NCBI GenBank assembly: GCA_963692915.1
Contig: OY843584.1
Coordinates: 128,001 to 192,000, forward strand
Direction of reading: 5' to 3'
Source: Cenarchaeum sp.
GTDB taxonomy: Archaea > Thermoproteota > Nitrososphaeria > Nitrososphaerales > Nitrosopumilaceae
Length of the DNA stretch: 64,000 bases
Position 1 is the first letter of the stretch. The number at the start of each line of letters is the position of its first letter. The notes under the pieces are model-generated. The model saw only the letters and a program-made list of their open reading frames with translations, did not search any database and was not told the origin of the DNA. Below, in pieces: positions 17,726-24,513 of the stretch. Made by a program: the position numbers and the translations under genes.

Positions 17726-17944
17726 ATGTAGGGTCTGTGTCACAAGGCTGGTTGCCGTACATGTGCCAGCTTTAGTTTCAGTCTTGAAATGCGTCTAGCC
17801 CGGCCTCGTTGGAGTCCAGTTCTCACCCTCAAACTCTTCTAGAAGCTCGGCTATGTATCATAGTCTGAGGATGGTATGCCTACGGTTGGAGCGCTTATCG
17901 CGACGATCTGTCCATGATATTTCAGCAGATTGCGCGTGTAAATG

Positions 17945-18054
17945 TATGAGGTTAGCACCCCCGCCCGTTCATGCCTAGACAGGCGCCGAAGTGGCAGGCA
18001 GATCGACAGGATCACGCCTATTTGGCCAAATGAGCATGAGGTGTTGACCTCATA
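17945..18054. mobile_element. 110-bp MITE-like element
   Basis: TIRs TATGAGGTTAGCAC / GTGTTGACCTCATA; flanked by direct repeat CGTGTAAATG (17935-17944, 18055-18064); inverted homolog at 37816-37925. Confidence 0.85.
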
Positions 18055-18068
18055 CGTGTAAATGTTTT

Positions 18069-20777
18069 TTATCGATCGGCATGTTTTTTGATTATGACGT
18101 GAACGTCATCTGGATCATATGCCACGTCCCACTCCCATTTACCAAACCTACCATCTGAATTTACTGTTTCAACCCATTCTTTCAACGCATCGTGTTTTTT
18201 TGTAGTTTGTTCATTATGTTGTCCTTTAATCTCTAAAATTAACGTGACATTATTTTCTAGCTGGACCAGATAATCAGGATTATAATTATGAATCTCTCCC
18301 TTAAATTGATATTTCACATTGAATCCTGATATGTAGTTTTTTACCCATGAAACAACTCTTTCATTTTTTTCTAATTCCTTGCTAGCTTGTTCTTCCCATT
18401 TATTGTCACACGGGCTAGGATTAATATGTGATTTTGTTGCATTGACAACTTTTTTTGTAGTGTACCATGCTTGCATATCATTAGTTGATTTTTGCTGTTT
18501 TGTGTCACCAAAAATTATTTTTTTAGATTTTGTGTTATCAGCTCGTATGAACTCATGTATGTACATGACAATAGTTTTCATGTTAAACATGATCGCTAAA
18601 TGTTTTCTTATTTTTAATTCATCTGTTAAATTTAAAAATTTAATTTTATCTAACTCGATAAATTTCTCAACAATTTTAACAATTTGAAAAAAAAGATAAT
18701 TTTTATTCCCTGACCATTCTGGGATTGTTATGTGATCATAGATATCACTTACAGTCTGAAAAATTATTGTTTGCATTCGTAATTTGTTGTAGGATTTTTG
18801 CAATGTTATCTCTGAAGCACGGCTGATGTCTAATTTTGAATCTAGCATTGGGGCTACGTGTATGGTTGTGGTGACTTTTGATCTAATCCTTAATGTTGAA
18901 ACTTTTTTCCAGTTGATTTTTAAAACTGGTGTGATTATAGTTTCTATTCTAGCTATGTTCGGCCAGCTTATCTCGTATTGAATATTTATTGGATCACATG
19001 CTATGCGTGTTTTCACCTTTTCTTTTCGAACCTTGCTTGGAGTGTTCTCATGTGGCAGAAATGAAAACGGTACTCCGAGTATATTGACATATTCTTTATC
19101 TAACAGACCAGTTTCAGGATCTATTTCATATGATAGGCGGCGTAAACCCCTGCCTACCACTTGTTCACATAAAAGTTGACTAGTAAATGCACGTAACCCC
19201 ATTATATGAGTGACATTTTTTGCATCCCATCCTTCAGACAGCATTTGTACTGCAATAATATTCATTATTTGTTCTCCGGGTTTGTCTTTTTGACCCACCG
19301 TGTTGATTATTTCACGAATAGCATCAGTTTTAGCAGATTGTTTTTCCCCACGTTCAGATTTTAAAACACTTGTATCGATACGACACATTCTATTTTCATC
19401 TGCCAATTCTTCAAATTTATATATGCTATTCTTAAAAAAATGTACTACTCTTGCTGATGTATGTACACTATTGCATACAGTAATCATTACAGGGTTTATA
19501 TTTGATTTTTTCAGCTCTTTTCTTTTCATCGCCCAATCATTTCCGAGTAATATGTATGCGTTACGGACTAAATCGGGTAATATTGTTTCGGGTTTTTTTG
19601 CGCCTTTTAGATCGCTTTTTACTTTGTCATTGTCGTATATATGATAATATTTGGAACGATCACCGTACTTGAGCGATTTGCCATCATCACCTGCAGGCAT
19701 ACGTGGAGTTTTTACAAGACCAGATTCTATAGCATCGTTAAGTGAAAAATCAGAAATTATCCATTTGAATAAAATATCATCGTTTGGCTTCTTTTGGCTT
19801 GGAATAAACGGCGTAGCTGTAAAATCAAAGCATGTGACAATAGTTCGTGCTCTATCTAATTTATCAAGTCCCTCGATCCATAACGTGGCCATCAGCTCAT
19901 CCATGTTTGATTCAAAGTCTGAATGTTTTTCATGACCATCTTTAAGTTTTCTCCACGCATGGTGTGCTTCATCATTTATCACTATTATGTTGTTATACTT
20001 ATGCTCCAAAATCCTTTTCGCGAATGCTTCATCGCTTTCAACTCCCCTGCGAACCACACTGTGAGGTTGATCTTCTACTGGTTTCAGCGTGTGCCAATTA
20101 TGAATTTTTAATTTTCCATGTCTTAGATTTTCATACATTGAATCTGGTATTATCGAATAAAGATGGTAATAACTATTTTCTTGATCAGGCGGCCATAGCA
20201 CTTGCAGTCGTGATTTTACAGTAAGTCCTGGAGCAACAACCACAATGTGTTTTGAAAATCTTTTATCTTGTGGATATGACACTTTGTTTAATATTTGCCA
20301 TGCGATTACCATTGCCATTACCACCGTTTTTCCTGTCCCTGTTGCCATTTTTGAACACAATCTTTTGAACAGTCCACCATCACTGCCTAGTCCGAGTTCT
20401 TTTTTTTCTGATTCGGGAGCCTCTATCATCCAAATTATTGTTTCTATAGCTTCCAATTGACAAAAGAAAAAACGATGTGCTTGACGCATAGTTGGATCGT
20501 TCCAAAATTCTAGAAGTTGCCTTGTTATTCCTGTGACCCCTGGATAACCTTTGTCTCTCCATCGATCTACTCGCTCTCTTATGATGTTTACAGATTGTAT
20601 GGGATAAAATGCTCCCGGATCATCAATAGCATTGTTTTCTGGAGACGCAATTATGTATCCTGCTGGCCTCCTTTTTCCAACAATGCGTTCAGGCTTGCGT
20701 GTCTCGAGATTAAATTTCCAGTACTCTTTGGGTTTTTCATACGGGTTGCATATTATCAATTGATCGATTTCGTCCAA
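18069..20777 (-). CDS. res: Type III restriction enzyme Res subunit
   Basis: KMATGTGKT (Walker A), NDEAHH, FTATP, MLSEGWD, EQVVGRGLRR, C-terminal PDY...LEIKG nuclease motif. Confidence 0.92.
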   Translation of the reverse strand: MDEIDQLIICNPYEKPKEYWKFNLETRKPERIVGKRRPAGYIIASPENNAIDDPGAFYPIQSVNIIRERVDRWRDKGYPGVTGITRQLLEFWNDPTMRQAHRFFFCQLEAIETIIWMIEAPESEKKELGLGSDGGLFKRLCSKMATGTGKTVVMAMVIAWQILNKVSYPQDKRFSKHIVVVAPGLTVKSRLQVLWPPDQENSYYHLYSIIPDSMYENLRHGKLKIHNWHTLKPVEDQPHSVVRRGVESDEAFAKRILEHKYNNIIVINDEAHHAWRKLKDGHEKHSDFESNMDELMATLWIEGLDKLDRARTIVTCFDFTATPFIPSQKKPNDDILFKWIISDFSLNDAIESGLVKTPRMPAGDDGKSLKYGDRSKYYHIYDNDKVKSDLKGAKKPETILPDLVRNAYILLGNDWAMKRKELKKSNINPVMITVCNSVHTSARVVHFFKNSIYKFEELADENRMCRIDTSVLKSERGEKQSAKTDAIREIINTVGQKDKPGEQIMNIIAVQMLSEGWDAKNVTHIMGLRAFTSQLLCEQVVGRGLRRLSYEIDPETGLLDKEYVNILGVPFSFLPHENTPSKVRKEKVKTRIACDPINIQYEISWPNIARIETIITPVLKINWKKVSTLRIRSKVTTTIHVAPMLDSKLDISRASEITLQKSYNKLRMQTIIFQTVSDIYDHITIPEWSGNKNYLFFQIVKIVEKFIELDKIKFLNLTDELKIRKHLAIMFNMKTIVMYIHEFIRADNTKSKKIIFGDTKQQKSTNDMQAWYTTKKVVNATKSHINPSPCDNKWEEQASKELEKNERVVSWVKNYISGFNVKYQFKGEIHNYNPDYLVQLENNVTLILEIKGQHNEQTTKKHDALKEWVETVNSDGRFGKWEWDVAYDPDDVHVIIKKHADR

Positions 20778-20780
20778 ATC

Positions 20781-23353
20781 TCATGGCTCCATAATTCGTA
20801 ATGTTTCTATTCCTCTATCATCGATTATTTTGACTGCAATTTTTTTATTTGCTCCCAATTTAAATGGTATAGATACTATTCCTGAATATTTCTCTAATAA
20901 ATATTCCTCAACATATGGTTTTAATGTTTTTGCTATTCTATTCCATGAGCTTTGTATATCCAACATTGGAAAAAATACTTGTTGTGGGTATATGCTTCGC
21001 CCATCATAATCTGTATCTAACATCCACATAGCAATACGTGTTGGATCGCCAGGTTCGACCTTATTTGTTATTGTATTGTAATAATCAAATCCATTAATCT
21101 TTACTTCCCAATCATTTTTTTTCTTTTTAAGTTCCACATCAGGCTGCCCTATTAGCATGAATGATTCATTTTTTCTTTGTTTACTTTTTAAATCACTTGT
21201 AAACAAATCGCCGTTTATCTGAGCTTTTAATATTACAATGCCGGGCCATCTGAGTTCATCTATGTCTTTTGCTGCTTCGGGATCAAACTGCAACGCTGCA
21301 AAAATCACCATTGCGGGTTTTTCACCTAATTTACGAACCTCTTGTATCGCATTTTCAACCTGACGTTGTTCAAGAGGTGTATGTGCAGATCCAAACGATA
21401 TTAAAACAGTTTTTGTTTCATTTCCGTTTGTTTTAGCTTTTGCATGTAACCACCTGGTTGTTGGATGTGGATCTACACTTAAAAATTTTATTTTTTGCCT
21501 ATTTTTCCCAACAATTCCAGTTTTTAACAACTCTTGGCGCCAATCAGATTGCCTTTTACTTTCGTTGTTTTCTAGATCTGATTCTTTATATTGATTAACA
21601 TACATTAGATCTAATGACTTGGCCGTTGGTGATGGTACTGCTTCTACTGTGAACGGGCCTGACACTCTTGCCTTTGACGAATCTTTGTCTGGGCAATCAT
21701 ACAAAATCACATTGTTGGGTTCTTCATCTTGTGATATTGATTTTTGAGTTATTTGTTGTATTTTTTTATATGAAAATCCAGCATCAATACCCTGGTCAGG
21801 ATTTTCTAATTTATAATATTTATAAGTCGCAGTCATTAATCTTCTTTTTGTTAATGCAATTGCTACGCGTGATGTGTCACATGTAATCCAACGTCTCCCA
21901 AATTCTTCTGCTACGAATGCGGTTGTCCCAGATCCGCAAGTAGGATCTAATATGAGATCACCTGGATCGCTAGTCATCAATATGAATCGACGAATTACTT
22001 TAGCTGTGGTTTGAACAACATATATCTTGTTTTCAAATCCCCCACTACTTGTGTCATCCCACATATTCTGAAGCTCGGCATATTCAAAATCATTGAAATA
22101 ACGCACATATGATAACCTGTTGCCATTTTTCATAATTCGATTTTTTGCAATCAGATTTTTCATGCCTTTAAGTGATGTTTTCCAATGACTATGTTGACCG
22201 GGTGTGAACACTTCACCGTCAAATATGAGAGAGTCGTCAGTCTTTGACTTGCCCTGAGATGTTGTGGCTGCAAGCCTATAAATTTTTGATCTTGGCGGTA
22301 TACTAAGTGGATTATCTCTTTGCTCTTTTGTCATTCTTATACGTTCGTCCTTATTTAATTCTAAATATTTGTAATTTGGATCATTGATGGGCAACTCTTT
22401 TTTTGTATACAGTTTATGAGATTTTAACAGTTTTTTATTTTTTGCATACCATACAATATAATCAAACACCACTGAAATATGTGTACTTGTAGAATTTGAT
22501 GTTTTTCTAAATGAGATTATGCTTACAAAATTCTCATATCCAAACACTTCATCCATTATTATGCGTACATAATGCAAATTATCATCAGAAATTTGTACTC
22601 CACAACTTCCGGTTTCATTTAGTAGCTCTTTTGCTAAAATTAACCGATCGCGCAAGTATCCCAAGTATGAATGAATTTCATGCTTCCATGTGTCTCTATA
22701 CGCTGTTACCATTTCTGGTTCTTGTGTGAGATCATCATCATTACGATCTTTAACACTAATTTTATTTACAAACGGTTGAAAGTTTGACTTATATTCAATA
22801 CCGTATGGTGGATCTATGTATATTGTTTGAATTTTTCCTGCAAAATTTTCTTTTTGTAGTAGAGAATTCATAACTAACAGGGAATCCCCGGCAATTAATC
22901 GATTTGACCAATTATGTGAATGTTGATAAAATTGCAATGCTTCTCGTAACGGAAGATTGTATTCATCATGATCAAAATGAAGGGTGATTTTTTGTTGGAT
23001 GTGAGTCTCTGGCTTCAGAATTTTATCAATAATTGTTATAGGATCAATACGTTCATGTTGATGTAGCGACACTGTATCGATTTCAAAATTTCCACCTTTT
23101 TGTTTCTCAAACCAGACTAATACCGGGTCTAAATGAGGGTCATATTCGTATTTGGTTGGATCATGATCACGATCTGTGTTGGGATCAACAAGCCCTACGG
23201 GTGGGTTATTTGGTCGTGCGCTACTGTGATAATACTGCTGAATGCGTTCTCGTGGCTTGGGTTTTGACTTTGATGCTTTTGTGACTTTATTTTTTGACTT
23301 TTTGCTGGGGGGGGGGGTCGTCGTGTTCCTATTTTCGTTTTAGTCAATGGCAT
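20781..23353 (-). CDS. mod: Type III Mod adenine methyltransferase, frameshifted at a C11 tract (main ORF 20781-23072)
   Basis: IDPPY and DPTCGSGTT (beta class); frame stays open upstream of 23072 (RPNNPPVGL...YDPHLDP) up to the poly-C; ATG at 23353 is out of frame by 1 nt. Confidence 0.88.
23307..23317 (-). repeat. C11 homopolymer (G11 on + strand) in the 5' end of mod
   Basis: CT-GGGGGGGGGGG-TCG in an otherwise AT-rich island. Confidence 0.9.
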
Positions 23354-23661
23354 ACCCCCACTATAACCACACGGCTTGCGTTGTTATATGTAAAACACAT
23401 AGTGTTGACATACTTATAGAGTTGAGTGTTCCCATAGCATTCTTTCTGGGTCATTGCTAACGCCCACTCGCAAGTTATTTTCTATATATAGGTACCAGCG
23501 CATATTGGTCATATTCCCTATGTTTTCTACAGGGTGGATGTGATTCTTCAGACGACTATTATTTCTGGCGTATTCTATGGTTTTACGTTTTGTCTGATCT
23601 GCCAGGGTAATAGTTCTGTACGCCTAGGCATTAATATGGCTCCCACTCGACGCCCGCCTGA

Positions 23662-24513
23662 ATGGCAAAGGCGACAGTCGGCATATCCATAGTGGGGCGT
23701 GACCACGAGGGAGTCGTGGCCGCGTTCACGTCATACGCGTTCCAGGGAGGGGCCAACATTGAAAAGATCACGCAGAACGTCATAAAGGGCCTCTTTGGCA
23801 TGTACCTCGAGGTCTCATTCTCCCGTCCCCCGGACCGCAAGTCATTTGACGCCGGGCTGCAGAAACTCGCCAAATCGCACGGCATGGAGGTCAGCGCGCA
23901 CCACGAGGACGGCACGACAAAGCAGATCGCAGTCTTTGTGACTCGCGAGCCGCACTGCCTCGAGGCCATACTCGCCGCACAAAAGTCACTGCGCGGCAAG
24001 GTCGCCGTCGTCGTGGGAACCACGAGGTCACTTGCGCCAATGTGCAAAAAGGCGCGCGTCCCGTTCATGGCCATCGAGGAGCGCAACCAGGAAAAGGCCG
24101 AGGCAAAACTGCTGAAAATCTGCAGAGAAAAGAACATCGACGTCATCGTCCTGGCCCGATACATGCGAATACTCACGCCAAACTTTGTCTGGCGCTATCC
24201 AAACCGCATAATCAACGTTCACCCTTCACTCCTGCCGGCGTTTCCCGGCGCATCGGCATACGCGCAGGCGCACGAGCGCGGCACAAAGATCGCCGGAGTC
24301 ACGACACACTATGTTACCGAGAGCCTTGACCAGGGCCCGATAATCACACAGCGCTCGTTTGAGATTCGCGCAGACGATGCGCTTGAAAAGATAAAGGTCG
24401 CAGGACAGAGACTAGAGGCGCGCGCGCTCCTAGAGTCACTAAAGATGCACCTTGCTGGCAGGCTCGAGGTTCGATGGCGAAAGGTTCACGCAAGGACGAC
24501 ACGGCGCAAGTAG
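23662..24513 (+). CDS. purU: Formyltetrahydrofolate deformylase
   Basis: N-terminal ACT domain; VLARYMRIL, INVHPSLLPAFPGA, LDQGPII. Confidence 0.92.
   Translation: MAKATVGISIVGRDHEGVVAAFTSYAFQGGANIEKITQNVIKGLFGMYLEVSFSRPPDRKSFDAGLQKLAKSHGMEVSAHHEDGTTKQIAVFVTREPHCLEAILAAQKSLRGKVAVVVGTTRSLAPMCKKARVPFMAIEERNQEKAEAKLLKICREKNIDVIVLARYMRILTPNFVWRYPNRIINVHPSLLPAFPGASAYAQAHERGTKIAGVTTHYVTESLDQGPIITQRSFEIRADDALEKIKVAGQRLEARALLESLKMHLAGRLEVRWRKVHARTTRRK

Follow-up and report, generated by a model that had tools for sequence, protein, structure and literature searches.

We analysed a 64,000-nucleotide (nt) stretch of Cenarchaeum sp. DNA (the window; assembly GCA_963692915.1, contig OY843584.1, positions 128,001 to 192,000) that carries the adjacent genes mod and res and a poly-C tract at the 5' end of mod. 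We propose, with a probability of roughly 0.6, that these genes form a Type III-class mod-res operon in which a hypermutable poly-C tract controls the expression of mod, and that this tract is one part of a multi-locus phase-variation repertoire. The genome of the window (G000) consists of one 1,644,826-bp contig with 59.4% GC and is 99.86% complete. It carries an archaeal amoA gene, in agreement with the ammonia-oxidising host assumed in a first-pass annotation made from the sequence alone; the host is a sponge-symbiont ammonia-oxidising archaeon of the genus Cenarchaeum. Comparisons were made with a congeneric Cenarchaeum genome (G001), whose Mod is 96% identical to the window Mod, and with the assembled contigs of four public runs (X1, X4, X5 and X6) from three studies.

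A poly-C tract separates the start codon from the Mod reading frame

The elements of the operon on which the argument rests are the following:

23384..23395, minus strand: TATA-like box TTTTACATATAA, ~36 nt upstream of the ATG, a putative archaeal promoter element inferred from the sequence
23318..23353, minus strand: ATG start followed by 12 leader codons (MPLTKTKIGTRR) before the tract, from sequence reading
23307..23317, minus strand: poly-C tract, C11 in the G000 assembly, from sequence reading
23195..23197, minus strand: premature TAG that closes the 52-amino acid product of the ATG frame at C11, from translation
20781..23339, minus strand: Mod reading frame, 852 codons plus stop, from translation
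21849..22832, minus strand: N6_N4_Mtase catalytic domain (PF01555), residues 170-497 of the open frame, from a domain match
18069..20777, minus strand: res, 902 amino acids with a ResIII helicase domain, from the open reading frame (ORF), a domain match and NCBIfam

The first-pass annotation had described a candidate phase-variable Type III methyltransferase gene captured in the OFF state, and its account of the reading frames held throughout. Translation from the ATG at 23353 runs into the C11 tract (23317-23307) and ends early at the TAG (23197-23195), giving a product of 52 amino acids (MPLTKTKIGTRRPPPPAKSQ...). The Mod frame itself is open from 23339 to 20784, with its stop codon at 20783-20781. 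Upstream it is bounded by a TAA at 23342-23340, and the first start codon within it is the GTG at 23072 (ORF 20781..23072). A non-canonical start between the TAA and the tract was considered and rejected, since the Mod frame has no ATG, GTG or TTG in this interval; a rarer start codon could still serve there. The first base after the tract lies 47 nt from the ATG, and therefore only tracts with a length of 0 mod 3 (C9, C12, C15 and so on) join the ATG to the Mod frame. As annotated, C12 restores a Mod of 857 amino acids, in which the tract would encode poly-proline. The repeat thus lies inside the coding region and sets its frame, as in a contingency locus. The only difference between the leader codons of G000 and G001 is a change from CCA to CCG, silent when read in the ATG frame.

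The mechanism that we envisage is as follows. Slipped-strand mispairing during replication would alter the length of the poly-C tract, and this slippage is probably frequent in the host, since the search for mismatch-repair genes yielded neither MutS nor NucS (see below). Tract lengths divisible by three would fuse the ATG to the 852-codon Mod frame, with the tract read as poly-proline, and other lengths would stop translation after 52 residues. OFF lengths would also remove restriction, because a Type III Res needs Mod for recognition. Reversible ON/OFF switching in populations, perhaps with an effect on the methylome or on gene regulation, would be the consequence.

The mod and res genes belong to the Type III class

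In the Mod translation the sequence YIDPPYG lies ahead of LDPTCGSGTT, i.e., DPPY (motif IV) comes before the DPTCGSGTT S-adenosylmethionine (AdoMet) motif (motif I), the order of the beta-class N6-adenine methyltransferases to which Type III Mods belong. The best defence-system profile of Mod is MTase_III of PADLOC (6.3e-139). When solved structures were searched (phmmer against the PDB), the only relatives of Mod were Type III Mods, namely those of Helicobacter pylori (6k0w), EcoP15I (4zcf) and Mbo45V (7dsu).

The res gene is intact and begins 3 nt after the mod stop codon. Its product, a large helicase-type protein of superfamily 2 with a ResIII domain, matched the NCBIfam family NF046055, 'BPTD_3080 family restriction endonuclease', with 935 bits (cut-off 800). 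The match of Res to the PADLOC profile REase_III was weak (2.2e-12), and no PDB relative of Res was found by sequence. From these matches the operon is assigned to the Type III class, as the first-pass annotation had it. A Type II or orphan methylase was considered and rejected, as the Type III profile was by far the best match and res is adjacent.

Mod probably starts upstream of the tract

The 5' end of Mod was compared with 119 Mod homologues of 53-70% identity to the window Mod. The usual homologue begins with M and a short K/R-rich stretch, followed by QYxH, NNPPVGL and YDPxLDP, and in the window frame all of these elements lie downstream of the tract. A PPVGL-type motif was found within the first 160 amino acids of 110 of the 119 homologues, and the motif VSLHxHERI, the exact place where a protein initiated at GTG 23072 would begin, in 114.

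These data bear on the possibility that Mod starts internally, either at GTG 23072 or at the annotated ATG, so that the tract would occupy a dispensable leader and its length would be irrelevant. The record's own gene call is indeed a protein of 696 amino acids (P0004), GTG 23072 precedes the catalytic domain (residues 170-497), and nine of the 119 database homologues are called with shorter N-termini. Initiation at GTG 23072 would, however, delete ~90 residues that are kept in 110 of the 119 homologues, and in both species no stop interrupts the 90 codons before the GTG, in DNA of 35% GC. The start of the 696-amino acid call falls within the LIAGDSLLVMNSL segment, and this segment aligns with residues ~89 onwards of solved Type III Mods. 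Among the short database forms, some may in turn be genes broken by a tract. We consider an internal start very unlikely, and the upstream ATG is the plausible start, as first annotated. Gene callers mis-annotate genes of this kind; here 696 amino acids were called where ~857 are expected.

Three or more prolines N-terminal of the PPVGL-type motif occur in only two of the 119 homologues, and these are the two closest to the window Mod (70% and 60% identity). In both the proline run lies at the equivalent position, in the arrangement M-(7 to 30 amino acids)-PPP(P)-K/R-rich; the N-terminus of P0005 reads ...TPAPPPPKKRK... and that of P0007 reads MSKNEILDPPPRKSSKK. Since poly-proline is in frame in its two closest homologues, the window tract is read as poly-proline when it is in frame.

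Orthologues without a tract were found in three of three relatives (G017, G037 and G003), all with ordinary ATG starts, and none of 15 more distant Mod loci (on 14 distinct contigs) has a G/C run of at least 8 at its 5' end. The tract is therefore a lineage-specific addition inside an AT-rich gene.

mod and res are maintained by purifying selection

The divergence of mod and res between G000 and G001 was measured by Nei-Gojobori counts. For mod there were 75.5 synonymous and 38.5 non-synonymous differences, with a synonymous divergence (dS) of 0.159 and a ratio of non-synonymous to synonymous divergence (omega) of 0.12; for res omega was 0.08. The 852-codon Mod frame is intact in both species, without indel or stop. 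Thus both genes are otherwise maintained by selection, as expected for a contingency locus, and mod is not a dead pseudogene. Since omega is 0.12 and the frame is intact in both genomes, mod is not permanently off.

The region around the tract behaved differently from the rest of the gene. The first ~100 codons of mod, together with 350 nt upstream (22950-23700), are ~99% identical between G000 and G001, and the island that contains the operon is 95.4% identical overall. In these codons dS was 0.016, compared with 0.17-0.19 in the other two segments of mod, and one synonymous difference was seen where ~11 are expected at the gene's own dS. Recent recombination, or a constraint that acts on the nucleotide sequence, is suggested by this near-identity around the tract and the promoter.

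Tract length differs between samples

If the tract is hypermutable, its length should differ among near-identical samples. In run X1 one contig of 1,970 nt crosses the tract with no other difference and 6 extra G, which corresponds to C17. In run X5 one contig of 649 nt carries C11, and C11 is also present in the G001 assembly. Contigs of the other two runs break at the tract: those of X4 end at 23316 and resume at 23349, and those of X6 end at 23292 and resume at 23319. Hence the length variation predicted by the first-pass annotation is observed between samples (C11 and C17), and the breaks suggest mixed lengths inside samples.

A homopolymer-length error in the assembly, or a recent pseudogene with a neutrally drifting tract, would offer another explanation. 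Every technology is prone to errors in long homopolymers, the tract has 17 C in X1 but 11 in the assembly, and no ON copy was seen. On the other side, three data sets (G000, G001 and X5) agree on C11, which speaks against an error, and an omega of 0.12 at a dS of 0.16, over 852 codons free of indels and stops, speaks against a pseudogene. A further point against this explanation is that the excess of tracts is genus-wide and concentrated in particular gene classes (see below). An explanation of this kind is very improbable in our judgement.

The mod tract is one of a genome-wide set

To place the mod tract in its context, homopolymeric runs were counted in G000. G/C runs of 5, 6, 7 and 8 nt numbered 1425, 283, 44 and 3, respectively; there was none of 9 nt, and then 15 runs of 10-26 nt appeared. 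Runs of A and T decayed smoothly with length. From this bimodal distribution of G/C runs we conclude that the mod tract is not a chance feature. The excess is specific to the genus: all 5 genomes of the genus carry G/C runs of at least 12 nt, compared with 3 of the 36 other relatives that were searched. Runs of at least 10 nt numbered 15 in G001, 11 in G002, 8 in G003, 8 in G004 and 10 in G005.

Seven orthologous long tracts could be compared between G000 and G001, and five of them differ in length (17/21, 19/16, 17/18, 19/18 and 16/13), with flanks that are 86-100% identical. An eighth tract, G13 in G001, is not matched by a long tract in G000. Besides the window mod, the tracts of G000 lie in or near the following genes:

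277562-280150 of G000 (L004, 2063-4651), minus strand: Mod2, 863 codons, 42% identical to the window Mod, with a C26 tract that is also one C short of in-frame
202774-203841 of G000 (L003): small PF01555 methyltransferase whose G11 tract, at codon ~8, is in frame with a TTG start
319212-320003 of G000 (L005): PF01555 methyltransferase broken by G12 just before the AdoMet motif; VIVDPAAGG continues in another frame
1309677 of G000 (L009): dndB (DNA phosphorothioation regulator) with G10 at codon ~21, in frame
1523591 of G000 (L010): PLD-SNF2 defence-type protein with an in-frame C15 at codon ~499, and G21 ~430 nt upstream of the ORF
419733, 647452, 656965, 1122850 and 1126657 of G000 (L006-L008): G/C16-19 tracts upstream of giant secreted-protein genes

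Mod2 has the same layout as the window mod, with ATGATG, 4 codons, C26 and a K/R-rich stretch; no orthologue of Mod2 was found in G001 with the Mod query. The giant proteins are 1,300-1,400 amino acids long, with signal peptides read from their sequences and a Big_5 match in two of them. At four or five of these sites the tract lies ~40-50 nt upstream of a TATA-like box, the flanking motif gcccaaaat is common to the tracts, and their lengths differ from those of the G001 orthologues. G001 also carries tracts in another PF01555 gene, where the tract is out of frame, in a gene for a DUF4344 peptidase, and upstream of a GmrSD enzyme, in the stretch that separates a TATA-like box from the ATG. The frame states of the tract genes are mixed; some are ON, some are OFF and need +1, and some are OFF and need -1. 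As a separate observation, runs of at least 15 G could also form G-quadruplexes.

Neither a MutS_V nor a NucS_C domain was found in the 99.86%-complete G000, and control genomes searched for these domains were matched. A conserved position, a labile length, a bias towards modification, defence and surface genes, and an apparent lack of loop repair are together the signature of contingency loci. The mod tract is one of ~15 long G/C tracts, a genus-wide set in DNA-modification, defence and giant surface-protein genes. Three more of these tracts lie in methyltransferase genes, a context that the first-pass annotation had missed.

Stochastic switching or recoding

Several observations weigh against a switch at mod. 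No ON allele was present among the four lengths available (C11 in G000, G001 and X5, and C17 in X1), so that ON and OFF lengths have not both been seen in nature in this very small, contig-only sample. All of these lengths, as well as the 26 of Mod2, are 2 mod 3, one C short of in-frame. The change from C11 to C17 preserves the frame, and is explained equally well by random switching and by selection on the register. The tract is exactly C11 in two species, although other orthologous tracts differ between them. In codons 1-100 of mod omega is near 1, on only 5 differences. A protein search gave no full-length Mod copy above 70% identity. Moreover, X1 may be the source sample of the G000 assembly, in which case the difference between C11 and C17 could partly be a problem of length calling. 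Of the OFF-state gene proposed at the outset, the OFF frame and the variable length stand. Apart from the Mod of G001, scans of metagenomes and genomes returned only relatives of at most 53% identity.

The shared register raises the possibility that the tract is a recoding site and not a switch. A length of 3n+2 would then be the normal state, low or tunable amounts of Mod would be made through slippage of the RNA polymerase (+1 C) or -1 slippage of the ribosome, and changes of the DNA in multiples of three would be tolerated. The C run is a perfect X XXY YYZ site. All five observations (11, 11, 11 and 17 for the window mod, and 26 for Mod2) need the same correction, -1 or one extra C; the change from 11 to 17 keeps the register; and mod is under purifying selection though 'OFF' in two species. 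Efficient slippage has precedent in the measurements of Antonov et al. 2013 (PMC3711429), where -1 frameshift products reached 10%, 40% and 63% on runs of A7, A9 and A11; archaeal genes were included in that work, with tests in E. coli.

The observed lengths are, however, few and not independent. G000 and X1 may represent one population and G001 shares ancestry with them, so that the register pattern is no more than suggestive; were any OFF state favoured, one of two OFF registers would be shared in 4 to 5 cases with a probability of roughly 0.06-0.25. In addition, no stimulatory RNA structure was found downstream of the tract, where the first 48 nt are unpaired (minimum free energy -7.2 kcal/mol, z +0.69), tract genes elsewhere in the set are either in frame or OFF in the opposite register, and the run is in frame in the two closest homologues. 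The lack of a downstream structure and the mixed registers of the other tract genes favour stochastic switching, and we regard recoding as an unlikely, though not negligible, account of the mod tract.

Comparison with known contingency systems

Campylobacter jejuni and Helicobacter pylori have small genomes with multi-locus poly-G/C contingency systems, made up of a dozen or more long G/C homopolymers. Their tracts concentrate in restriction-modification and surface-structure genes, vary in length between strains, and occur in the absence of MutS-type mismatch repair. Cenarchaeum resembles these bacteria in its small genome, in the number of tracts, in the gene classes affected, in length variation and in the apparent absence of MutS-type repair. 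It differs from them in its archaeal replication and transcription and in its high-GC genome, and in front of its surface genes the tracts are found ~40-50 nt upstream of a TATA-like box, rather than in the coding region or in the interval from a -35 to a -10 element. We see about even odds that Cenarchaeum carries a Campylobacter-like multi-locus poly-G/C contingency system comprising no fewer than four DNA methyltransferases (of which two are Type III mods) together with dndB, further defence genes and the promoters that drive giant secreted Ig-like proteins. It would be the first multi-locus phase-variable genome in the Archaea, a strategy evolved independently in a non-pathogenic archaeal symbiont, and the register of mod may also allow low-level expression based on slippage.

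As in the bacterial phase-variable Type III systems, the Cenarchaeum mod precedes res, a repeat in its 5' coding region sets the frame of an otherwise intact gene, and several repeat-bearing methyltransferases occur in one genome. In contrast to the bacterial genes, it is found in an archaeon that is a sponge symbiont, its product belongs to a long (~850 amino acids) subfamily of Mod with a K/R-rich N-terminus, and it is known from DNA alone, with OFF lengths only. Atack et al. 2018 (PMC5909438) reported simple sequence repeats in 662 of 3,805 Type III mod genes; the word 'archaea' does not occur in the main text of that paper, and archaeal entries in its supplementary lists are possible.

Another point of comparison is the homopolymer-dependent -1 frameshifting or transcriptional slippage described in PMC3711429, for example on poly-A runs in the magnesium chelatase genes of bacteria and methanogens. 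The mod homopolymer is similar in that it stands at the junction of two frames that a -1 correction would join and in that its register is conserved between relatives. It differs in being poly-C, in that its length varies in the DNA, and in that no downstream structure was found.

Repeat-driven phase variation and the phasevarions under its control count as a hallmark of bacteria adapted to a host. A review of 2025 (PMC11868660) asks whether multi-locus phase-variable genomes are restricted to pathogens and places archaeal surveys in future work. In two archaeal restriction-modification surveys (PMC10609329 and PMC11033074), phase variation appears only where bacterial work is cited, and one of the surveys notes two Type III systems in C. 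symbiosum A. A preprint of 2025 states that contingency loci have been studied in archaea. The literature searched gave no archaeal phase-variable Type III mod, as the first-pass annotation had supposed for the thaumarchaea. The mechanism is of a known kind; as far as the literature was searched, the novelty lies in the domain of life and in the multi-locus repertoire. If the proposal is true, the phenomenon extends to a second domain of life, the strategy is tied to symbiosis and virus pressure and not to pathogenicity, and the methylomes and restriction barriers of uncultured ammonia oxidisers are heterogeneous within one host.

The mod-res island and its borders

The surroundings of the operon comprise two further features:

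18057..23400, minus strand: low-GC (32-37%) mod-res island between flanks of ~62% GC, from the composition profile; syntenic in G001
17943..18056, no strand assigned: repeat of ~113 nt similar to a miniature inverted-repeat transposable element (MITE), abutting the res end of the island, from BLAST against the genome

The island occupies the syntenic site in G001, in a collinear alignment of 7,765 nt with the identity given above. Horizontal acquisition of the mod-res operon would be the first step of the mechanism that we propose. The MITE-like repeat has 23 BLAST matches elsewhere in G000, and at least 20 genomic copies with inverted ends. At this repeat the contigs of all four runs fray, with a spike in depth and many loose ends, and some run contigs show a skip of 191 nt (17869-18061) across it. 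One MITE-like copy (~204040-204140) adjoins the small tract-bearing methyltransferase gene, and a motif related to the repeat, catgaggttagc, is found upstream of Mod2. In the gene beside the island, a 3-nt (GGT) insertion polymorphism was observed at 23994 in contigs of X1, X4 and X5.

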